Made by a program: the position numbers and the translations under genes
The notes under the pieces: generated by a model
The model's database searches: none
Seen by the model: the letters and a program-made list of their open reading frames with translations, nothing else
What the model was told of the DNA's origin: nothing
Shown here: positions 581 through 61,485 of the stretch, piece after piece
Numbering within the stretch: the stretch's first letter is position 1
Layout: each line of letters opens with the position of its first letter
Source of the DNA: an uncultured Clostridia bacterium
Lineage (GTDB): Bacteria > Bacillota > Clostridia > TANB77 > CAG-508
Length of the DNA stretch: 64,000 bases
Direction: 5' to 3'
NCBI GenBank assembly: GCA_944386675.1
Contig: CALXBY010000003.1
Coordinates: 17,689-81,688 of the forward strand

Positions 581-703
581 TAGGGACGTGCCAAATCGTT
601 TCAAAATGAAACCAAAAGGGACAGACCCCATTACTTATTAATCTCTTAAACATTTAGGTCTGTCCCTTTTGGTTTCATTTTGAAACGATTTGGCACGTCC
701 CTA
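581..703. mobile_element. MITE-like element, family 1, minimal copy: two perfect 45-bp inverted arms (GGGACGTGCCAAATCGTTTCAAAATGAAACCAAAAGGGACAGACC) around a 29-bp spacer, flanked by TA
   Basis: Arms 583-627 and 657-701 are exact reverse complements; TA at 581-582 and 702-703; lies exactly between prmC stop (704) and whiA RBS. Confidence 0.8.
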
Positions 704-2104: not shown

Positions 2105-2780
2105 TTACATGACATATAATAATATGCAGAAAAATTGTAATATGCTACCTAATAATATAAACATATGAAAAATAGAATGCATCCATTTATGTTTTTTTCC
2201 AACACCATAAAGAATCGCTCCTATAGAATAAGCAATTCCTCCTGCTAATAATAGGCTAAATCCTGCTATTCCTAATAATGATGGTAATAAATTTATTTTT
2301 ACAATAATACACCATCCCATGACCAAATAACATATCATTGAAAACTTTTTATATTTCTTTATATCAATTGAATTTAAAATAATTCCTAATATCGCCATAG
2401 CCCATATAATTCCAAATATCGTCCATCCGGGTTGCTGTATCATATTCTCTTAAAGTACATAATGCAAATGGTGTATAAGAACCTGCTATTAGCAAAAATA
2501 TAGAGCAATGGTCTAGCACCTGAAATACTCTTTTAGAATATCTCTTTGGACTTAGTCCATGATAAATACTAGACATAGTATATAATATAATCATTGTAGC
2601 ACCATAAATTGCACCACTAACTACTCCATATGCATTTCCTCTAATTGCTGCAAATACAATACACAAAACTGTTGCAACAATTCCTAAAGCTGCACCTACA
2701 ATATGTGAAGTCATATTAAATATTTCTTCACCTTTTGTATATTGGGGTAATATTCTATCTTTTAATTTGATTCTATTCAT
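2105..2780 (-). pseudogene. hemolysin III / PAQR family membrane protein, apparently frameshifted (two overlapping ORFs 2364-2780 and 2105-2443)
   Basis: N-terminal ORF MNRIKLKDR...YTPFALCTLRE and C-terminal ORF ...QQPGWTIFGIIWAMAILGI together match HlyIII topology; frame change near 2440-2460. Confidence 0.5.
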
Positions 2781-2970
2781 ATTTTTCTCCTATATTTTAA
2801 TCATATTCTTAAATATAATTTGTACACATTTTTTATATTTACAATTTATAGTTTTTTGTCATTTCTATATCTGTTGCTATTATAACATTTTCATACATGT
2901 AAGTAAATAAATATATAATAATTACTCTTCGCAGTTTTTTCTATATTATGACATTCTTTTTTATTTATAA

Positions 2971-3846
2971 TTATATATCTATGTCCTTATATGTTGTTAC
3001 TATCTTAGCTCCCTGCTTTATTAAATCATTTGTTCCTACTGAATTTATCTCATCAATATTTCCTGGTACTACATATACATCTCTTCCTTGTTCTAATGCA
3101 AAATCCACAGTAATTAAAGTTCCACTTTTCTTTTTGGCTTCAATGACTATAATTCCTTTACTCATTCCACTAATAATTCTATTTCTAGCTGGAAAATTCA
3201 TCTTAGCAGGCTCTACTCCTAATGGATATTCAGATAAAATTGCCCCATTTTCTCCTATTATTTTATCATACAAATATTGATTTTCTTTAGGATATACAAT
3301 ATCTAATCCACTTCCAATAACCCCCACTGTTATTCCTTTGGCTTTTATTGTACCTATATGTGACCAACTATCAATTCCTTTTGCTAATCCACTAATGATA
3401 TTAATATCTTTTTTAGCTAAATTATATGAAAAATATTGTGCCATTTTTATTCCATATTGGCTTGCATCTCTACAACCAACAATCCCTATTGACTGATTAT
3501 TTAATATTTTTAGGTTTCCTTTTATATACAAAGATATGGGATAATCATATATATTTTTTAAAATTTGCGGATATTCTACATCTTCAACTGTTATTATATT
3601 CACATTTTGTTTTTTCATTTTTTCTATATATTTATCTATTTTTTCTCTTTCTTCTTTATTTAATATATTATCTGCTATTATCCCATTAAATCCTTTTATT
3701 TTTATAATTTCCTCTTTTTTTAGATTATATATTTTCTCTGGCGTTTTATATATTTCCAATAATTTTTGTTTTCTTTTACTTCCTAATCCTTTTACTAAAG
3801 ATAGCCAAATCCAATATTTTTTGTTCTTCAAATTTTCTATATTCAT
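2971..3846 (-). CDS. dprA: DNA processing protein DprA/Smf
   Basis: 291 aa; IVGCRDASQYG...GLAKGIDSWSH...GVIGSGLDIVYP...FPARNRIISG Rossmann-like DprA motifs. Confidence 0.85.
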   Translation of the reverse strand: MNIENLKNKKYWIWLSLVKGLGSKRKQKLLEIYKTPEKIYNLKKEEIIKIKGFNGIIADNILNKEEREKIDKYIEKMKKQNVNIITVEDVEYPQILKNIYDYPISLYIKGNLKILNNQSIGIVGCRDASQYGIKMAQYFSYNLAKKDINIISGLAKGIDSWSHIGTIKAKGITVGVIGSGLDIVYPKENQYLYDKIIGENGAILSEYPLGVEPAKMNFPARNRIISGMSKGIIVIEAKKKSGTLITVDFALEQGRDVYVVPGNIDEINSVGTNDLIKQGAKIVTTYKDIDI

Positions 3847-6720: not shown

Positions 6721-6735
6721 TTTTCCTCCTTTTGT

Positions 6736-6953
6736 CCAATTGAGAGATTTTGAGGGATTTTGGGGACGGACTCATTTTTCCCTTTTTTAGTTTAAAAAAT
6801 CGATTATATATAAGTTCTGTATATGTAAATTTAACTTAAAAAAACAAGTTCGTTATACATAAAACCATCTAATGATATTATGTTTCTATACTTATTAATA
6901 CAAAAAGGGAAAAATGAGTCCGTCCCCAAAATCCCTCAAAATGCCTCAATTGG
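6736..6953. mobile_element. MITE-like element, family 3: ~47-bp near-perfect terminal inverted repeats (CCAATTGAG[a/g]GATTTTGAGGGATTTTGGGGACGGACTCATTTTTCCC) around a 123-bp AT-rich core
   Basis: 6736-6782 versus reverse complement of 6907-6953 differ only at 6745-6748 (GAGAGATT vs GAGGCATT); sits between ligA stop (6958) and the RBS of the 84-aa ORF. Confidence 0.75.
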
Positions 6954-6957
6954 ATAT

Positions 6958-12234: not shown

Positions 12235-12330
12235 TCCTTTCTGAATGTTTTATAATTATCATTCTCTCTAAAATATGTACTCTATTTTAAGCATTATTTA
12301 TTATAAGATTCTCCATCTTTATTACCAAAG

Positions 12331-12364
12331 AATTGCCAAAATGGCCCGTCCCCTTTGGCAACTT
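12331..12364. repeat. family-2 palindromic repeat GTTGCCAAAATGGCCCGTCCCCTTTGGCAAC (REP-like hairpin), 2 bp after the stop of the UDP-sugar pyrophosphorylase gene
   Basis: 8-bp stem TTGCCAAA/TTTGGCAA with GGCCCGTCCCC loop; identical copies at 54173, 54243 and 61452. Confidence 0.8.
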
Positions 12365-12365
12365 T

Positions 12366-15423: not shown

Positions 15424-15469
15424 TAGGGACGTGCCAAAATAGACATTTTTTGTCCCAAAGGGACACACC
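15424..15469. repeat. degenerate solo copy of family-1 arm (TA + GGGACGTGCCAAAAT...GTCCCAAAGGGACACACC), 5 bp after spoIVA stop
   Basis: first 17 nt and last 13 nt match the family-1 arm ends; internally deleted. Confidence 0.6.
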
Positions 15470-15543
15470 TTATCTCTATAAGTTAGAAAAAGTCAATTGT
15501 ACACATTATTTTTTCTAACTTATATGTAAGGCTACACTATAAA

Positions 15544-35466: not shown

Positions 35467-35676
35467 AAAATCGTGATTTTTCTAAAGACATACTATATAT
35501 TTTATGAAATTACGAATGTGAATGAAATTATATTAGAAATTATTAAGATAGCTAATAGGAGAATCTCAAACTTGCTTTGAGAGGTGCCTATTAGCTATCT
35601 TTAAAATTTCTTTATGATGTAATGTTAACCGAGTAATAAATAAAATATATAGTATGTCTTTAGAAAAATCACGATT
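35467..35676. mobile_element. MITE-like element with 32-bp perfect terminal inverted repeats (AATCGTGATTTTTCTAAAGACATACTATATAT) and an internal ~48-bp hairpin; right arm overlaps the spoIID stop codon
   Basis: 35467-35500 versus reverse complement of 35645-35676; internal ~150 bp homologous (inverted) to 56904-57139 inside family-1 copy B, including the CTAATAGGAGAATCTCAAA...TTTGAGAGGTGCCTATTAG hairpin. Confidence 0.7.
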
Positions 35677-36695: not shown

Positions 36696-37424
36696 TTAAG
36701 AAATTAACTTCATTTTCATATTTTCTAAAATTTTTCTTTCTAATCTCGATACTTGTACTTGCGTAATTCCAAGAATTTTTGCTACTTGTGACTGTGTTTT
36801 GTCTTTATAAAATCTAAGTAATATAATTTCTTTATCTCTATCTTCTAATTCTTCTATTAATTGTTTAATTGCTAATTTATTTGTGATAAATTCTTCTTCA
36901 TTTTTATCTGATGAAATCTTTTCTATTAAGCAAATGCTATTCCCATCTTTATTATCTGTATAAAATTTTCCATCTATAGACTCGACTGTATTACTTGCTT
37001 CCAATGCTAAATTGATGTCTTCCTTTGAAATTTTCAACTCCTTTTCTAACTCTTCTATACTTAATTCTTTTCCTTTTTTATTGATACTTTCTTTTTGTAG
37101 CTCTCTAATTTTCATTCCTAATTCTTTAATTCCTCTACTTACCTTTATCGGTCCATCATCTCTTATATATCTTTTTATTTCTCCAATCATATAAGGAACC
37201 GCATATGTAGATAATTTCACATCATAATTGGTATCAAATCTTTTAATTGATTTTATAAAGCCCATACAACCAATCTGGTATAAATCTTCTAAATCATATC
37301 CTCTTCCATTAAATCTTTTAACTATACTCCATATAAGTCCATTATTATCTCGAATCATTCTTTCTAATTCGTATTTATCACCAGATTGCGCTTTTTTGAT
37401 TGCTTCCACACTGTTTTCAAACAT
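36696..37424 (-). CDS. sigF: sporulation sigma factor SigF
   Basis: 242 aa sigma-70 family, immediately downstream of spoIIAB; region 2.x/4 motifs. Confidence 0.9.
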   Translation of the reverse strand: MFENSVEAIKKAQSGDKYELERMIRDNNGLIWSIVKRFNGRGYDLEDLYQIGCMGFIKSIKRFDTNYDVKLSTYAVPYMIGEIKRYIRDDGPIKVSRGIKELGMKIRELQKESINKKGKELSIEELEKELKISKEDINLALEASNTVESIDGKFYTDNKDGNSICLIEKISSDKNEEEFITNKLAIKQLIEELEDRDKEIILLRFYKDKTQSQVAKILGITQVQVSRLERKILENMKMKLIS

Positions 37425-37433
37425 AGTATACCT

Positions 37434-37916
37434 CTATTCTTTTGTAATCATTTCAAACTCATCATCTGACTCTTCATTTTCCACTTTATTTTTTATAACT
37501 TTACGCATCGTAACTTTTGTCCCTAGTCCTACAACAGATTCCACATCTACTTTATCCATAAAGCTTTCCATAATTGTAAATCCCATTCCTGACCTCTCTA
37601 AATTTGGTTTTGTTGTATACAATGGCTCTTTTGCTATATCAATATTTTCTATTCCCTTTCCTTTATCTGATATTTCTATAATAATTTCATTTTCTGTTAG
37701 TCTTGCAAAAATTTTAACAATTCCTTGTTTCTTGTCATATCCATGAATGATGCAGTTTGTAACTGCTTCTGAAACTGCTGTTTTTATATCGGCTAACTCT
37801 TCTATTGTTGGATCCAATTGAGAAGCAAAGGCTGCAACTGTAATTCTTGCAAATGCTTCATTTGCAGATTTGCTAATAAATTCTAACTTCATTTCATTTT
37901 CGATTTCACTTTTCAT
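37434..37916 (-). CDS. spoIIAB: anti-sigma F factor SpoIIAB (serine protein kinase)
   Basis: 160 aa; GHKL ATPase motifs (N-box [11 protein letters not shown]-box GMGFTIM). Confidence 0.9.
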
Positions 37917-37993: not shown

Positions 37994-38314
37994 TTATGAA
38001 ACTTCTAAATTCGTTATTGGAATTAATCTCAATATTCCACTCATTTCAAATATTTTTCTAATACTACTTGTTAAATTGGCAAGTTCAACAGTTCCTCCTA
38101 GCATTTTTACAAATTTATATCTTCCAATAATCAAACCTATCCCTGCGCTATCCATGAATGTAACACTATTAAAATCAAATATAACTTTTTTAGGCATATA
38201 TCTTTCAATTTCATAATCCGCCTTCCTCCTTATCTTTTGAACACTAAAATCATCAATTTCATCAGTTATTTTAAAAATTAATAACTTGTCCTCTTCGTAA
38301 AATTTTGATTCCAT
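37994..38314 (-). CDS. spoIIAA: anti-sigma F factor antagonist SpoIIAA (STAS domain)
   Basis: start at internal MESKFYEED; FMDSAGIGLIIGRYK STAS phosphorylation-site region; the track ORF's 42-aa N-terminal extension runs into the repeat and is rejected. Confidence 0.8.
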   Translation of the reverse strand: MESKFYEEDKLLIFKITDEIDDFSVQKIRRKADYEIERYMPKKVIFDFNSVTFMDSAGIGLIIGRYKFVKMLGGTVELANLTSSIRKIFEMSGILRLIPITNLEVS

Positions 38315-38428
38315 TATAGCCTCCTTTAAAATTCTTCTTGTATTATATTTCTTTTTCCAATATTTTCCAAGAGTAAAAAATAAGAAGTTTTGTCGTTTTA
38401 TAAGAAGTTTTCGACAAATGAAACAATT

Positions 38429-38491
38429 GGGACGTGTCAAATCATTTCAAAACGAAACAAAAAGGACAGGCATCCTGCCTGTCCCTTTTGG
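38429..38491. repeat. family-1 element remnant: one diverged arm (GGGACGTGTCAAATCATTTCAAAACGAAACAAAAAGGACAGG) plus the first 16 nt of the opposite arm
   Basis: alignment to the 45-bp family-1 arm; lies between GH13 stop (38520) and spoIIAA start. Confidence 0.7.
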
Positions 38492-38519
38492 ATTAAAAAG
38501 TACAAAAGATATTTTGAAT

Positions 38520-40412
38520 TTATTTTTTATCTTTTCTTAAAATGAGTGTTCCATATTCTCCTACTTTATCTTTTGTACTATTTTCGGTAAATACAACTTC
38601 ATAATTCCTAAAATTGTCATTAAAAATAACTTTGTCGGTTCTATTGGAATATAAAACTATATTTCCTTTCTCTGAATACATTTCTAATAGCATGCATCCT
38701 TCATCAATCTCTCTCAGCCTTGGTTCGCCATCACCTAAAATATCTATATTACTCTTTCGATAATGGTTTAATTTTGTTACATAAGTTTGCATATCCAGCT
38801 TAGGATTCTCCCAATCCATATCTTTTCGGCAAAATGGATCTTTATATCCCATGACACAATTCTCCGTTCCCTGAAGCATACTGGGATTTCCTGGCAAAGT
38901 ATAAAAGATTGGTAATGCATTCTTTTCATTCCTTCTTGCCACAATTCTCTGCTCTTCCGGTAATTGATCATGACTTGCCGAATAACTTCTAAAGCCAAAT
39001 ATCTCAAACTCAGCGTCTATATGCCTCCAAGGACCTTCAATATCATCCAGTTTTTTATATGGGTCTGGATTCATGAGTTCTCCAACCAAAGATGTCATCA
39101 AGGTCACCGTATCATGCGTAGATATAACATTCATCAGAATATCTGACACAGATTTTGGATATTCTCTATAAACTTTTTCAAAGTTATATCGAAAATGCTC
39201 ATGCAATCCCCATCTCACCCAACGGATAATCGCATCTCTTATTGGATAATTCATCAATGAATTTGCCTGTCCATCAAAGATTTGTGGATTTTCTCGCTCG
39301 GTTGCAATGTCCCACATCTCATTAATGAAAATAATCTGTGGATAATCCTTTTGAATATCTTTTACAATTGCCAAAAGAAATTCTTTGGGTAATATATCTC
39401 CCAAGTCCATTCTAAAGGCATCTACTCCTACACTGATATATTTCTTTAGGATTTTAATGCATTCCTTTTGCACTTCTGGATTTTGTTTATTGAGTTCTGG
39501 CATATTGGTATAACCATACCATGTAACTGGTTTTCCATCTTTGAAAATGTAAAATTTTCTATAAGGAGAATTTACATCAGATATTGCTGATTTAAAATAT
39601 TCATGTTCATCTGATGTATGGTTAAATGCCATATCGCATATAACCTTTATTCCCAGTTTCTTTGCTTCTATGCAAAGTTCCTCCAAATCTTTCCAAGTCC
39701 CCAGCATAGGATCTATCTGCCAGAAATCTTCTGCCTCATAATGATGATAATTTCTACTTTTACAGATTGGATTCATATATATTGCATTAAATCCAAGTGC
39801 TTTTATATATGGCAATTTTTCTTTTATGCCTTGTAAATTACCACCATAAAAATATTCGTTCCGATAGATTCCATCAGAATCTGGTTTCCAGTCTGGCATT
39901 CTATCATTCCAATCTTTGTTTTTTCTTCCTTCAACTGGAATAATCCCATTACTACCAATTGCAAACCTATCTGGTATGATTTGATAAATCATCCGTCCTT
40001 TCCATTCTGGATATTCTTTCAAAGTCGCATCTTTTACTTCAAGTTTCCAGCAGTACTCATTTGGATATGCTTTTGTGTTTTTCTGTGTTGTCAAAAATTC
40101 TTCATTTTGATATACATAGTACAGTTGTCCCTCTATAAAGAGAGTAAAGTAGAACCAGTATATCCCTGATTTACCAAGTGAAAATTCAGCCAAATAAACA
40201 CTTCTGGTTATACCTGTTTCTCTTTCCTCTTTTCCTTCGTACGGTATGCTCACTTTTTTCACTATCCTATCAAATTGATAGAACATTATCTGAAGTTTTT
40301 CTACAAATCCTTTATCCAGGATTTTTACTTGAACTTTTACCTTGTTTTTGGTTGTACATTTTTCTGGCTTTATAAGCCGGAATTCAAAATACTCTTCTCT
40401 CCTTTTTAACAT
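38520..40412 (-). CDS. GH13 alpha-amylase-family glycosidase (neopullulanase/cyclomaltodextrinase-like, intracellular)
   Basis: 630 aa; GH13 regions II-IV GFRMDLGD, EMWD, SHDT; no signal peptide. Confidence 0.85.
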   Translation of the reverse strand: MLKRREEYFEFRLIKPEKCTTKNKVKVQVKILDKGFVEKLQIMFYQFDRIVKKVSIPYEGKEERETGITRSVYLAEFSLGKSGIYWFYFTLFIEGQLYYVYQNEEFLTTQKNTKAYPNEYCWKLEVKDATLKEYPEWKGRMIYQIIPDRFAIGSNGIIPVEGRKNKDWNDRMPDWKPDSDGIYRNEYFYGGNLQGIKEKLPYIKALGFNAIYMNPICKSRNYHHYEAEDFWQIDPMLGTWKDLEELCIEAKKLGIKVICDMAFNHTSDEHEYFKSAISDVNSPYRKFYIFKDGKPVTWYGYTNMPELNKQNPEVQKECIKILKKYISVGVDAFRMDLGDILPKEFLLAIVKDIQKDYPQIIFINEMWDIATERENPQIFDGQANSLMNYPIRDAIIRWVRWGLHEHFRYNFEKVYREYPKSVSDILMNVISTHDTVTLMTSLVGELMNPDPYKKLDDIEGPWRHIDAEFEIFGFRSYSASHDQLPEEQRIVARRNEKNALPIFYTLPGNPSMLQGTENCVMGYKDPFCRKDMDWENPKLDMQTYVTKLNHYRKSNIDILGDGEPRLREIDEGCMLLEMYSEKGNIVLYSNRTDKVIFNDNFRNYEVVFTENSTKDKVGEYGTLILRKDKK

Positions 40413-40634
40413 TTTTTCTCCATCCTTTCTATTTATAATACATGAATTTTTATCTATCGTAAAAAGCCATTTGGCTTATAAGTTCACTTTACTATTTTCC
40501 TTTCCATTTGTCAATGTCATTTTCTGTAAATCCTTGCTATTTCTTTATACTTTTTTAATAAATTTGTAAATAAAAATCTTAGCTTTATATAAAAAATAAA
40601 CCTTAGATACAATAATTATAGAAATTGTATCTAA

Positions 40635-40681
40635 GGTCTGTCCCTTTTGGTATCATTTTGAAACGATTTGGCACGTCCCTA
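40635..40681. repeat. family-1 solo right arm (45 bp, 43/45 identical to consensus) + TA, ending 4 bp before the ytfJ stop codon
   Basis: GGTCTGTCCCTTTTGGTATCATTTTGAAACGATTTGGCACGTCCC TA. Confidence 0.8.
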
Positions 40682-40685
40682 TTGT

Positions 40686-41330
40686 TCACTCATCATCTAA
40701 TGTTTCATCATATTCATACTCATAAGTAATTTCTTCTTCTATTGGTTTCTTTGTTTTTTCAATTCTTTCTTTCATATGTCTACTTTCTTCTAAATCACTT
40801 TCAATTTTATCTTTATCCATCTTTACTTTTTCTGATTTTTTCTTTTCTAGATTTTTTGGATCTTCTTTTTCAGTTGTTTTTTCTTTTGCTTTTTGCATAC
40901 ATTTATTTATCATATTATTTGTTTTATCTAATACATCTGGAATATAATCTAAAAGCTTGTCTATTGAAGAACTATAATTAACTGGCATTAGCTTTACATT
41001 TTCTCCTTGTATCACCAAAAAAGCAATTGGATTAATTGTAACACCTGCTCCTGAACCTCCTCCAAATGGTAATCTGTATTGTACCTCTTCTTCTTTTTCT
41101 TTCTTCTTATATTCATCAACTGTTTCTCCTTTAAATTCACTTCCTCCTGCTGCAAATCCAAAAGATACTTTTGATATGGGAATAATCACAATATTATTAG
41201 AAGTTTCAATTGGTTCTCCTATAATGGTATTCACATCTATCATATCTTGAATACTATTCATAGCTGTAGTCATAAGACCTTCTATTGGATGTTCGCTCAT
41301 CTTTTTTTCCTCCTTTTTTATTAAATACAT
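40686..41330 (-). CDS. ytfJ: sporulation protein YtfJ/GerW family
   Basis: IIPISKVSFGFAAGGSEF core of the GerW/YtfJ family; acidic Lys/Glu-rich tail; true start probably an internal Met (41300 or 41273). Confidence 0.75.
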   Translation of the reverse strand: MYLIKKEEKKMSEHPIEGLMTTAMNSIQDMIDVNTIIGEPIETSNNIVIIPISKVSFGFAAGGSEFKGETVDEYKKKEKEEEVQYRLPFGGGSGAGVTINPIAFLVIQGENVKLMPVNYSSSIDKLLDYIPDVLDKTNNMINKCMQKAKEKTTEKEDPKNLEKKKSEKVKMDKDKIESDLEESRHMKERIEKTKKPIEEEITYEYEYDETLDDE

Positions 41331-41889
41331 ATATGATATTTATAATATGTATCAGTTTTATTTGAAATATACCAGAAATGACAATTTTTATGAAATTTTG
41401 GTCAATATATATTGGCTTTACTTGATACTTTATACTATTCTTTCTTACATACATATTAGAAATTCCTATGGATAAAATGCTTGAAAAAATTGCTACTAAC
41501 ATAGCTGTTAAAAATGCATTTTCTGTTCCAAATTGCATCTCTAAATTTAATTTTTTTATATACATACTTTTTCTCAATTCTTTTACCATATCTATAAATT
41601 TAAAATCTATCTTATCTTTATTATTCAAAATATCTTTTTCTAATTTCTTTATCTTTTCATTCATCTGAAATCTTTTCTGCATTTTGATTAATTTTTTCTT
41701 CGTTATTTTGAATTTTATGATTGGTAACTTTTCTAATATATTCAGTTTTAAAATTATTTCATATTTATCATTTATATGATTATTACTTTGTGTGTTTATG
41801 ACTAGATTTATGATTTTTATTTCTATTTTAGCCGTCATAAAGATTATGATTAGTAAAAGAATCACCAATAAAATAAAAGAAAAAACCAA
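41254..41889 (-). CDS. DUF2953/YtfI-like membrane protein
   Basis: 211 aa, N-terminal TM, positioned upstream of ytfJ as in the Bacillus ytfI-ytfJ operon. Confidence 0.5.
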   Translation of the reverse strand: MVFSFILLVILLLIIIFMTAKIEIKIINLVINTQSNNHINDKYEIILKLNILEKLPIIKFKITKKKLIKMQKRFQMNEKIKKLEKDILNNKDKIDFKFIDMVKELRKSMYIKKLNLEMQFGTENAFLTAMLVAIFSSILSIGISNMYVRKNSIKYQVKPIYIDQNFIKIVISGIFQIKLIHIINIIYVFNKKGGKKDERTSNRRSYDYSYE

Positions 41890-54150: not shown

Positions 54151-54172
54151 TTTTTGTTCCTCTTTTCTAAAA

Positions 54173-54203
54173 GTTGCCAAAAGGGACGGGCCATTTTGGC
54201 AAC
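54173..54203. repeat. family-2 palindromic repeat (inverted orientation) in the 5' leader of the EndoQ-like gene
   Basis: GTTGCCAAAAGGGACGGGCCATTTTGGCAAC. Confidence 0.8.
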
Positions 54204-54242
54204 TTTCTTTCTATAATTAACTAATAATTTTTCCTAAAAAAA

Positions 54243-54283
54243 ATTGCCATTTTAGCCCGTCCCCTTTGGCAACTTTTGGCAAC
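54243..54283. repeat. family-2 palindromic repeat with duplicated 3' half (TTTTGGCAAC x2), terminator-like for the 54289 gene
   Basis: TTGCCATTTTAGCCCGTCCCCTTTGGCAACTTTTGGCAAC followed by T7. Confidence 0.8.
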
Positions 54284-55748: not shown

Positions 55749-56885
55749 TTGAAAATATTAAGTATAGAAACTTCTAGTAAAATATGTAGTGTCGCAATAT
55801 TAGAAGATAAAAATTTAGTAAAAAAAATTGAATTAAATAATGGATTAACACATTCAGAAACATTAATGCCACTCATTAAACAAATATTAAATGAAACAAA
55901 TTTAAATTTATCTGACATGAATTTACTCGTTTGTGATATTGGACCAGGTTCTTTTACTGGTATTCGAATTGGTGTTGCAACAGTAAAAGCTTTCACTGAT
56001 AGTTTGCAAATTCCTTCTGTTGGCATTAGTTCTCTTGAAGGATTAGCTTATAATATTAAAGATGATGGTCTTATCTGTAGTATTATCGATTGTAAAAACA
56101 ACAATTGTTATTATGCTTTATATGAATTAAAAAATGATACATATACATTATTAGAAGCACCTAAAGCAGATAGCGTCCAAAATTGTTTAAATTTTTTTAA
56201 TTATAAATATGCAAATTCTAAAATCACTTTTGTTGGAGATGGCTCTATTATTTACAAAAATGTAATAGAAAATATATCTTCAAACTTTGTTTTTGCTAAT
56301 ACAAATTTTCCAGATAATGAACTTAATATGATTGATGTATATAATTTAGGAATTGCTGGAATGAATAAATATACCAAATATGGAGCAGATGAAAATCTAC
56401 TACCTCTTTACTTAAAAAAGCCTCAAGCACAAAGACAGCTAGAAGAAAAAAATATTGTTATAAAAGATATGAACATTTCTGATTTAGAAAATTTAGACAT
56501 TTCTAAATTTGATGATTTCTGGAATATCGATATTTTAAAAGATGAATTAAATAGTGAAAATTCTAAATTTGTCTGTGCCAAACTAGAAAATACAGTTATT
56601 GGTTTTGCTGGTATTAAAATTATTTTAGACGAAGCTGATATTATGAATATAGCTGTTATGAAAAATTACAGAAGACAAGGTGTTGCAACTTTACTCCTAA
56701 ATCATATCTTTAATATTTGCAAAGAAAAAAATATTGAAACCCTAAATCTTGAAGTTAATGAAGAAAATTTTTCTGCCATCTCTTTATATCAAAAATTCGG
56801 TTTTAAAGAATGTGGCAGAAGAAAAAAATATTATGATAACAAATATGATGCGATTTTAGGGACGTGCCAAATCGTTTCAAAATGA
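55749..56885 (+). CDS. TsaB (t6A biosynthesis, inactive Kae1 paralogue) fused in one frame to a RimI-type GNAT acetyltransferase; last 9 codons and stop supplied by the family-1 repeat
   Basis: TTG start with GGAGG 6 nt upstream; N-term LKILSIETSS...CDIGPGSFTGIRIG (TsaB); C-term ...AGIKIILDEADIMNIAVMKNYRRQGVATLLL... (GNAT motif A); terminal ...AIL|GTCQIVSK* read from repeat sequence. Confidence 0.75.
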   Translation: MKILSIETSSKICSVAILEDKNLVKKIELNNGLTHSETLMPLIKQILNETNLNLSDMNLLVCDIGPGSFTGIRIGVATVKAFTDSLQIPSVGISSLEGLAYNIKDDGLICSIIDCKNNNCYYALYELKNDTYTLLEAPKADSVQNCLNFFNYKYANSKITFVGDGSIIYKNVIENISSNFVFANTNFPDNELNMIDVYNLGIAGMNKYTKYGADENLLPLYLKKPQAQRQLEEKNIVIKDMNISDLENLDISKFDDFWNIDILKDELNSENSKFVCAKLENTVIGFAGIKIILDEADIMNIAVMKNYRRQGVATLLLNHIFNICKEKNIETLNLEVNEENFSAISLYQKFGFKECGRRKKYYDNKYDAILGTCQIVSK

Positions 56886-57186
56886 GACCAAAAGGGACAG
56901 ACCTATTTATATAGAAGTATAACAAAATTAAAATATTATATTTCTTAATTTATTACATTCCTCGGCTAACATTGCATCATAAAGAAAAACTAAAAGTATC
57001 TAATAGGCACCGCTCAAAATCAAGTTTTGAGATTCTCCTATTAGATACTTTAATTTTTTCTAATATGATTTCATTTGCATTCGTCATTTTATAAATTAAG
57101 AAATATAATATTTTTAATAATTTTTCTTTCTTCTAAACAGGTCTGTCCCTTTTGGTCTCATTTTGAAACGATTTGGCACGTCCCTA
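56857..57186. mobile_element. MITE-like element, family 1, full copy (~330 bp): TA + 45-bp arm ... 236-bp core with internal hairpin ... 45-bp arm + TA
   Basis: arms 56859-56903 and 57140-57184 are reverse complements (one G/A difference from copy A); TA at 56857-58 and 57185-86; right end forms the TAG stop of the S4-domain gene. Confidence 0.85.
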
Positions 57187-61424: not shown

Positions 61425-61451
61425 TATATAGAAAAACTTATTTTATTAAAG

Positions 61452-61482
61452 GTTGCCAAAATGGCCCGTCCCCTTTGGCAAC
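61452..61482. repeat. family-2 palindromic repeat, 3 bp after the enolase stop codon
   Basis: GTTGCCAAAATGGCCCGTCCCCTTTGGCAAC, identical to the copy at 12333. Confidence 0.85.
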
Positions 61483-61485
61483 TAA

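Follow-up and report, generated by a model that had tools for sequence, protein, structure and literature searches.

Gene organisation of the ytfJ-spoIIAA region

The region studied here lies in a 64-kb stretch of DNA of an uncultured Clostridia bacterium, referred to below as the window, and contains a GH13 glycosidase gene that sits between two sporulation units, the spoIIA operon (spoIIAA, spoIIAB and sigF) and the ytfI and ytfJ genes, and is flanked by two copies (arms) of a repeat that we call family 1. All the genes near it are located on the minus strand, in the order HAD hydrolase, RecX-like gene, scpA, ytfI, ytfJ, GH13, spoIIAA, spoIIAB, sigF and SpoIID-domain gene (Table 1). The two arms around GH13 are real and inverted in the window sequence, with their outer ends pointing away from the gene, and GH13 is the sole open reading frame (ORF) with a Pfam domain between them. 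An earlier reading of this DNA (the original prediction) had described inverted arms enclosing only the GH13 gene and had placed the segment between the spoIIA operon and ytfI/ytfJ; both points were confirmed, GH13 being an insertion between two sporulation units. It had also proposed that the segment was a composite, cargo-carrying miniature inverted-repeat transposable element (MITE), or the product of a recombination between two copies, which had captured the gene. Comparison with related loci (designated L001 and so on) led us to a different view: we consider it probable that the arms are independent, differently aged members of a family of the repetitive extragenic palindrome (REP) or REPIN (REP doublet forming a hairpin) type, and that GH13 is not cargo but an old, vertically inherited cassette.

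Table 1. Positions of genes, repeats and predicted signals in the window (REP-associated tyrosine transposase, RAYT; terminal inverted repeats, TIRs).
Feature	Position	Strand	Sequence, basis or remark
Complete family-1 doublet, REPIN-like, 123 nt	581-703		Perfect 47-nt inverted arms, 29-nt spacer; between two co-directional genes
6S (SsrS) RNA gene	1684-1874	minus	Rfam, 91 bits (gathering score 46)
Family 3 repeat	6735-6954
Family 2 repeats	12328-12365, 54169-54276, 61448-61485
Further palindromic repeat	15426-15475		Resembles the arms flanking the RAYT orthologue in L101
Separate 208-nt element	35469-35676		Perfect 37-nt TIRs (AATCGTGATTTTTCTAAAGACATACTATATATTTTAT); downstream of the SpoIID-domain gene
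sigF	36696-37424	minus	In frame in the window
spoIIAB	37434-37916	minus
spoIIAA	about 37994-38315	minus	ATG at 38315; AAGGAGG ribosome-binding site
spoIIA promoter block (putative)	38316-38418	minus	Sequence reading and promoter scan; includes the AAGGAGG
spoIIA promoter-like site	38342-38370		TTGGAA-17-TATAAT
Spo0A-box-like motif	38391-38397	plus	TGTCGTT
Spo0A-box-like motif	38410-38416	minus	TGTCGAA
Left family-1 arm, old solo REP-type repeat	38419-38470	plus	Arm 38429-38470, outer stem 38419-38428; alignment
GH13 rho-independent terminator (predicted)	38458-38490	minus	CAAAAGGGACAGGC-AGGAT-GCCTGTCCTTTTTG; terminator scan and RNA fold
GH13 glycosidase gene, 630 aa	38520-40412	minus	Pfam PF00128
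GH13 leader stem-loop	40430-40480		TAAGCCAAATGGCTTTTTA
GH13 promoter-like site	40486-40514	minus	TTGACA-17-TAAAGT, sigma-70-like; promoter scan
AT-rich 16-bp hairpin directly behind the right arm	40590-40637	minus	Followed by UUUAUUUUUU; RNA fold, z -3.6 for a 131-nt stretch
Right family-1 arm, young solo REP-type repeat	40635-40688	minus	Arm proper 40635-40681; sequence match
ytfJ	40686-41330	minus
ytfI	41254-41889	minus
Complete family-1 doublet, 330 nt	56857-57186		Spacer holds a copy of a second palindromic element, related to 35469-35676
Core related to the 208-nt element	56948-57098		Nested in the spacer of the 330-nt doublet

Presence and absence of GH13 in related loci

Synteny in the relatives was read from exact-protein look-ups of GH13 homologues and from a metagenome scan with SpoIIAB (80 loci). 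The order scpA-ytfI-ytfJ-GH13-spoIIAA-spoIIAB-sigF was found by the look-ups in the GH13-bearing relatives, and the gene occupied the same ytfJ-spoIIAA slot in L008 (GH13 83% identical to that of the window), L121 and L123 (81% each), L011 (79%), L126 (78%, from the metagenome scan), L003/L004 (71%), L006 (69%) and L204 (52%). All the GH13 homologues at least 52% identical whose context was read lay in this slot; the closest GH13 elsewhere was 44% identical and had an unrelated context. Arms were sought in the related loci by short-word BLAST and Hamming scans, and the outer part of the arm was aligned locally to each spacer with 300 shuffles as control. At least seven lineages (GH13 52-83% identical) hold the gene in the slot without the right arm and at least three of them without either arm, since outer-arm alignment detected no arm on either side of GH13 in L003/L004, L006 and L204. 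The original prediction had itself named relatives with the gene in place and no repeats as the finding that would speak against capture, and such relatives exist.

Relatives in which ytfJ and spoIIAA are adjacent and GH13 is missing, which the same prediction had proposed to look for, were found too. In the outgroup loci with ytfJ (L127, L139, L145, L148, L158, L161-164, L168, L172, L174 and L175) spoIIAA comes directly after ytfJ, and in L139 and L161 the Spo0A box follows the ytfJ stop codon at a distance of only ~10 nt. Two close relatives, L124 and L125, whose SpoIIAB proteins are 98% and 96% identical to that of the window, also have ytfJ abutting spoIIAA and no GH13; their ytfJ-spoIIAA spacers consist of one palindromic repeat each, belonging to other families and bearing a GGGAC-type core. 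A neighbour-joining tree was built from six flanking genes (3861 columns, 500 bootstraps, compared as splits, with L127, L161 and L148 as outgroups), and it supported the core clade at 100%, the group of the window and L125 at 83% and the group {L124, (L008, L011)} at 95%. Because the GH13-less L124 and L125 are nested among GH13 bearers, one gain at the base of the core clade followed by two losses is the most parsimonious history, and an old accessory cassette, gained once and lost in two lineages, fits the data best. The GH13 gene, with its own promoter and terminator, would have entered the ytfJ-spoIIAA junction once at the base of the clade and would have been inherited vertically since then.

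Some relatives showed further rearrangements near the gene. In L122 (GH13 77% identical; 2565-3384), GH13 is directly followed by the sortase gene found ~5.8 kb beyond that point in the window, the spoIIAA-spoIIAB-sigF-spoIID-M23-ychF segment is missing and the GH13 terminator differs, which suggests a lineage that lost sporulation genes yet kept ytfJ and GH13. L003 has a 53-nt insert near GH13 that is absent from the near-identical L004; a ~250-nt element with GTTACTATTCACAGC ends lies near GH13 in L006 (6966-7356), L126 and L123; and CTATATATTAGGAAAGTCATGATGACTTTCTAATATATA occurs downstream of GH13 in L123 and L126, with a close variant in L121. Such small palindromic insertions, differing among near-identical relatives, show a very active turnover of miniature elements in this clade.

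Age of the two arms

The right arm, described earlier as 43/45 identical, is near-perfect, being 46/47 identical to each of the four arms in the two complete copies of the window; it fits the arm pattern with 0-1 mismatch, compared with 0 matches in 100 shuffles. Its partial outer stem, TGAACA, reaches position 40688 and includes the stop codon of ytfJ (TGA, 40686-40688), which is TAA or TAG in the relatives. The repeat overlaps the end of a gene in a similar way at ileS in L022 and at an M23 peptidase gene in L006. The right arm is present in the 99%-identical strains L009 and L010, which have both arms, and absent from every other GH13-bearing relative examined; in the ytfJ-GH13 spacer the outer-arm match was significant in the window only (score 31, shuffle maximum 14). 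It would be a recent insertion at the ytfJ stop codon, which now supplies the TGA.

Directly behind the right arm, the AT-rich hairpin shares its first 3 nt with the last 3 nt of the arm. It was missed by a simple terminator scan because of its 10-nt loop, and the relatives have unrelated hairpins at this place; together with the U-run that follows, it is probably the terminator of ytfJ. We also considered the T-rich tail after this hairpin as a partner arm decayed by C-to-T and G-to-A changes, and this candidate was dropped, the complexity of the sequence being too low to judge.

The left arm has the outer box GGGACGTGTCAAATC, and its inner box is fused in register to the stem of the GH13 terminator. 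It is 37-38/44 identical to the other arms, and its outer part gave an alignment score of 28 against a maximum of 14 in 300 shuffles. L121 (score 24) and L126 (score 17) have orthologous remnants in the same position, and they and the window were the only loci with a significant match in the GH13-spoIIAA spacer. A decayed left arm was also suspected in L008 and L011, which share GATTT at the same offset, and was rejected, the alignment being no better than with shuffles. At 4-fold degenerate sites the window has an identity of 0.60-0.68 to the remaining members of the core clade, so neutral sequence of clade age should retain ~80% of the ancestral bases. The left arm, with ~85% retained, and its more decayed orthologues in L121 and L126 fit an arm inserted at about the time the clade arose, its age being similar to that of the cassette. 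Since the right arm is essentially undiverged and confined to the 99% strains and the left arm is of clade age, the two arms are not the ends of one insertion event.

These data bear directly on the proposal that GH13 was moved or captured by a composite MITE, or by a recombination between two copies, with the arms as its ends. The outer-out inverted arrangement around a single gene agrees with it, as do the absence of GH13 from the junction in the outgroups, L124 and L125, the somewhat higher G+C content of GH13 and the same gene-between-arms topology around a transposase gene in L022 (see below). However, besides the lineages that have GH13 without the right arm or without either arm, the ends differ in age (46/47 against 37-38/44 identity to the family), the right arm is restricted to the 99% strains, the flanks show no matching target-site duplication (TT on the left and TA on the right, in AATT/GGGACG and CGTCCC/TATTGT) and no second copy of the arm-GH13-arm unit appeared in the searches made. 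The capture of GH13 is for these reasons very improbable.

The GH13 terminator and the spoIIA promoter

A predicted rho-independent terminator begins 29 nt past the GH13 stop codon and has a 15-bp stem with seven G-C pairs, a short loop and a T-run. The same hairpin (AAAAGGGACAGGC, a variable loop and GCCTGTC(C/T)CTTTT) follows GH13 in L003/L004, L006, L008, L011, L121, L123 and L126, i.e. also in relatives that have no arm. The original prediction had seen at 38429-38491 a left arm plus a 16-nt stub of a right arm; the arm stands, whereas the stub and the inner end of the arm are the two halves of this terminator, and the arm-specific part of the region is only the outer ~40 nt (38419-38457).

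The terminator stem GGGACAGGC fits the motif GGGAC(R)(K)(R)C, of which there are 18 copies in the window against ~0.3 expected from base composition by our own estimate; all the copies other than the GH13 terminator lie inside repeat elements. Because the motif is otherwise confined to repeats, because the stem is joined in register to the outer arm and because a comparable collapsed doublet was found in L048, the terminator may represent the centre of an old collapsed REP doublet. Selection would keep the central hairpin as the terminator of GH13, stopping transcription just before the Spo0A boxes of spoIIA, and the outer arm would decay neutrally; the terminator might in this way shield the spoIIA promoter from read-through.

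On the other hand, the likeness between the terminator and the inner box could be a coincidence, a solo arm having been inserted just behind a pre-existing, unrelated terminator. L003/L004 and L006 carry the terminator without any arm, and where the genome is AT-rich, an intrinsic terminator has to have a short G+C-rich stem between A and T runs, which narrows the choice of sequences. Against this stand the fit of the stem to a motif that is repeat-confined elsewhere in the window, the in-register junction and the parallel in L048, and we regard coincidence as unlikely, although it deserves the most weight among the alternatives considered here.

The original prediction had placed the left remnant ~110 bp upstream of spoIIAA, at the promoter of the operon. 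The distance was right, the arm ending ~114 nt upstream of the ATG, but the arm lies just upstream of, and outside, an intact conserved block. This putative promoter block, with its Spo0A-box-like motifs, promoter-like site and ribosome-binding site, is nearly identical in all the relatives, with or without GH13 or arms, and judging from these alignments it is undisturbed by the left arm.

The GH13 gene and its leader

The GH13 protein matched PF00128 with 154.8 bits (cut-off 22) over residues 144-442, which places it in the GH13 family. Its best NCBIfam match was the cyclomaltodextrinase AglB (240 bits, below the cut-off), and all the NCBIfam equivalogs scored below their cut-offs; the protein appears cyclomaltodextrinase/neopullulanase-like. 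No signal-peptide-like stretch was seen at its N-terminus. The G+C content of the gene is 0.335 against 0.22-0.31 in its neighbours, and that of its third codon positions (GC3) is 0.28 against 0.13-0.23. GH13 diverges much faster than the flanking genes (52-83% identity against 86-98%). Its sigma-70-like promoter site is kept in all the GH13-bearing relatives, within the conserved block TTTACAGAAAATGACATTGACA.

Between this promoter and the start codon, the leader contains a small conserved stem-loop followed by Ts, which was found at the same place in all the GH13-bearing relatives, including L204 with its merely 52%-identical GH13. It may serve as an attenuator or bind a regulator. At Rfam gathering thresholds, no family matched the arms or the GH13 leader, and the 6S RNA was the sole match in the window.

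The repeat family

The two doublets and the two singlets of the window make six arms. The 123-nt doublet has a fold energy of -89 kcal/mol (z -18). The arms share an architecture in which an outer box (TAGGGACGTGCCAAAT) in a short covarying stem is followed by a small hairpin and an inner box (AAAAGGGACAGACC), and the element usually extends 7 nt beyond the arm as originally delimited, a flanking NNAACG pairing with an internal CGTTNN. Covariation of this outer stem, with 464 positions paired compared with 443 +/- 5.5 after shuffling, places the conserved TAGGGACGTGCCAAAT in a loop. The terminus of the arm is TAGGGACG, without GTAG, and its reverse complement has CGTC 3 nt from the end.

The exact 20-nt terminus was sought in species-representative genomes and found in more than 108 stretches from ~25 metagenome-assembled genomes (MAGs) of uncultured gut Clostridia/Eubacteriales. 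Roughly half (53-57) of the 112 evaluable termini had no inverted partner within 400 nt, solo arms being the commonest state, and 103 of 119 termini (87%) were extragenic even though 82% of the DNA of these loci lies in ORFs of at least 120 aa. In copy number and extragenic placement, and in the coexistence of doublets and singlets, the family thus looks like REP/REPIN sequences. The complete copies have TA at either end, as a continuation of the palindrome. For the 123-nt doublet, an empty site or target duplication was sought in the orthologous spacer of L070, which proved unrelated and unalignable. Further palindromic families share a GGGAC(G/A)(G/T)(G/A)C core with family 1, for example AAAGTTGCCAAAAGGGACGGGCCATTTTGGCAACTTT and GAGGGATTTTGGGGACGGACTCATTTTTCCC.

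A RAYT-like transposase gene between family arms

The original prediction had suggested searching for other gene-sized segments bracketed by the arms. In ~1 Mb of related DNA, the only such segment besides GH13 was L022 3912-5128 (1217 nt); the one other wide-spaced arm pair, in L079, corresponded to two separate elements. The L022 segment encodes, between inverted arms, a 251-aa protein that matched the Pfam family Y1_Tnp (PF01797) with 36 bits (cut-off 23) and has a C-terminal helix-turn-helix (HTH) domain. Its best NCBIfam match was the REP-associated tyrosine transposase (RAYT; NF047646), with 62.2 bits against a cut-off of 80, which was not reached. A search of the PDB with the single sequence gave nothing at E<=0.01, whereas a profile of 23 homologues hit only TnpA-REP (4ER8; E 6e-4), with the HUH and Y motifs aligned.

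Orthologues 72% (L101) and 77% (P0132; L207-L212) identical occupy the same site between ileS and an ABC-ATPase gene and are bracketed by variants of the family; in L207 and L209, inverted arms bracket an ORF of 251-252 aa. P0132 was read on 23 contigs, including samples of the study from which the sequence of the window comes, and all the places listed show the ileS-RAYT-ABC arrangement. The relatives therefore contain a Y1 transposase gene flanked by the repeats, and no DDE gene was seen between matched arms in the ~1 Mb of related DNA, where the sole gene so placed besides GH13 is that of the Y1 transposase. We infer that the arms of the family would be mobilised in trans by this apparently single-copy, RAYT-like Y1 (HUH) tyrosine transposase.

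An extra nucleotide in sigF

An extra C was present at the same spot in 27 of 66 sigF loci (AAY-AAY-C-GGN, or CAA-C-GGN), including L003/L004, L006, L011, L126, L204 and more than 20 metagenome loci (e.g. L128, L131, L133-138, L150, L153, L155-158, L167, L172, L175, L182 and L183). Owing to this nucleotide the conserved 28-aa N-terminus and the conserved body of the sigma factor are in different frames, and joining them takes a +1 shift. In the 0 frame the codon there is CGG, expected to be a rare one in DNA of 28% G+C. The two parts of sigF are both conserved among lineages with a SpoIIAB 72-93% identical to that of the window, and the loci come from a wide range of studies and assemblers. 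Within the core clade, the shifted state seems to be the ancestral one, with a loss of the C in the lineage of the window and L125. These loci might reflect either a conserved programmed +1 frameshift in this first sigma factor of the forespore or pseudogenes that arose repeatedly; our literature search found no paper joining sigF with programmed frameshifting.

Discussion

The arm sequences, the synteny, the difference in age between the arms, the terminator hairpin, the extragenic bias of the family and the bracketing of the RAYT-like gene carry the view that two independent REP-type arms of different age flank an inherited GH13 cassette. Several points weigh against it. The terminator and insulator functions are predictions. 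The RAYT-like protein stays below the NCBIfam equivalog cut-off and is a divergent, RAYT-like member of the Y1 family, and its gene was not found within the 64-kb window. The search for an empty-site/filled-site pair with alignable flanks gave none, and transposition and target duplication are putative. Two solo arms in adjacent spacers, in outer-out orientation, would have a naive chance of ~1% per window by our own estimate, which is less surprising given how often the ytfJ-spoIIAA junction acquires repeats. Finally, compared with the outgroups, the GH13 cassette ends on its 3' side just where the old left arm has its outer end, which leaves room for a role of REP sequences in the gain of the gene.

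This last point is the basis of a further explanation, in which the ytfJ-spoIIAA spacer is a hot spot for REPINs, the GH13 cassette was integrated when the clade arose, either beside a REP doublet or within one, L124 and L125 lost it through recombination between flanking palindromes and the right arm came later and is unrelated. In comparison with L139 and L161, the cassette stops at the very point where the left arm meets the Spo0A box with its outer end, this arm is of clade age, the spacers of L124 and L125 are single GGGAC-type palindromes, L158 has another palindrome between ytfJ and the Spo0A box, and the excess of GGGAC(R)(K)(R)C in the window is, apart from the terminator, entirely within repeats. 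Nevertheless, no lineage has a trace of an old arm on the ytfJ side, L003/L004 and L204 have the cassette without an arm, L124 and L125 retain repeats of other families, and repeats may simply pile up in any non-essential spacer. We consider this explanation improbable, and we are equally doubtful of its fuller form, in which the cassette came with a REP doublet whose centre became the terminator and whose outer arm marks the 3' edge, and was later precisely excised twice, leaving a palindrome each time. Were it true, REP/RAYT systems would be agents of accessory-gene turnover beside a master sporulation operon.

Taking the arms as independent REP-type insertions, we filed the family, from its sequence features, as REP/REPIN-like and RAYT-associated, the curated RAYT cut-off not being reached. 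With the REP/BIME (bacterial interspersed mosaic element) and REPIN-RAYT systems of E. coli (TnpA-REP, 4ER8) and Pseudomonas fluorescens (PMC3116915, PMC3337134, PMC5581495) it shares extragenic palindromes that occur as inverted doublets and as many singlets, often at the 3' ends of genes, a Y1/HUH gene at what appears to be a fixed site, bracketed by inverted repeats, and several related families in one genome. In contrast to the 20-40-nt hairpins of those systems, the arms are long (~47-54 nt) and modular, with a box in a loop closed by a covarying 6-bp stem and no GTAG tag; the host is an uncultured gut Clostridia bacterium with 28% G+C, and the transposase has a C-terminal HTH domain and scores below the RAYT cut-off. 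Group 1 RAYTs have been noted in Clostridia (PMC5581495). The study that gives the definitions of the GTAG/CGTC tags also describes RAYTs with GTAG REPs, or with long TIRs from moderately abundant families, on their flanks (Di Nocera et al. 2013, PMC3733652). The RAYT-like gene reported here likewise lies between long non-GTAG TIRs that recur in moderate number, but solo arms outnumber doublets, and neither Firmicutes nor Clostridia turned up in a word search of that paper.

The complete copies also resemble TA-duplicating MITEs (IS630/Tc1-mariner derived, Correia and RUP-like) in their length (123-330 nt), perfect TIRs, TA bounds and long hairpins; here, however, the TA is part of the palindrome, no DDE transposase gene was found with these ends and half of the termini are solo. 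As in composite transposons or MITE pairs with cargo, two inverted copies of one repeat surround an accessory gene, but here the two copies are not of the same age, at least one of them is younger than the cargo, and there is neither a shared target duplication nor, in the searches made, a second copy of the unit.

The analysis of this locus disposes of a tempting but mistaken example of gene capture by a pair of MITEs. To our knowledge, REP/REPIN elements tied to a RAYT-like transposase have hardly been described outside Proteobacteria, and the present family, in uncultured gut Clostridia, behaves like such elements. It would also illustrate clearly how a hairpin that stems from a repeat is retained as a predicted terminator between a metabolic gene and the spoIIA promoter, at a junction where a gene for a starch/glycogen-type enzyme appears to have been gained once and lost twice among close relatives.

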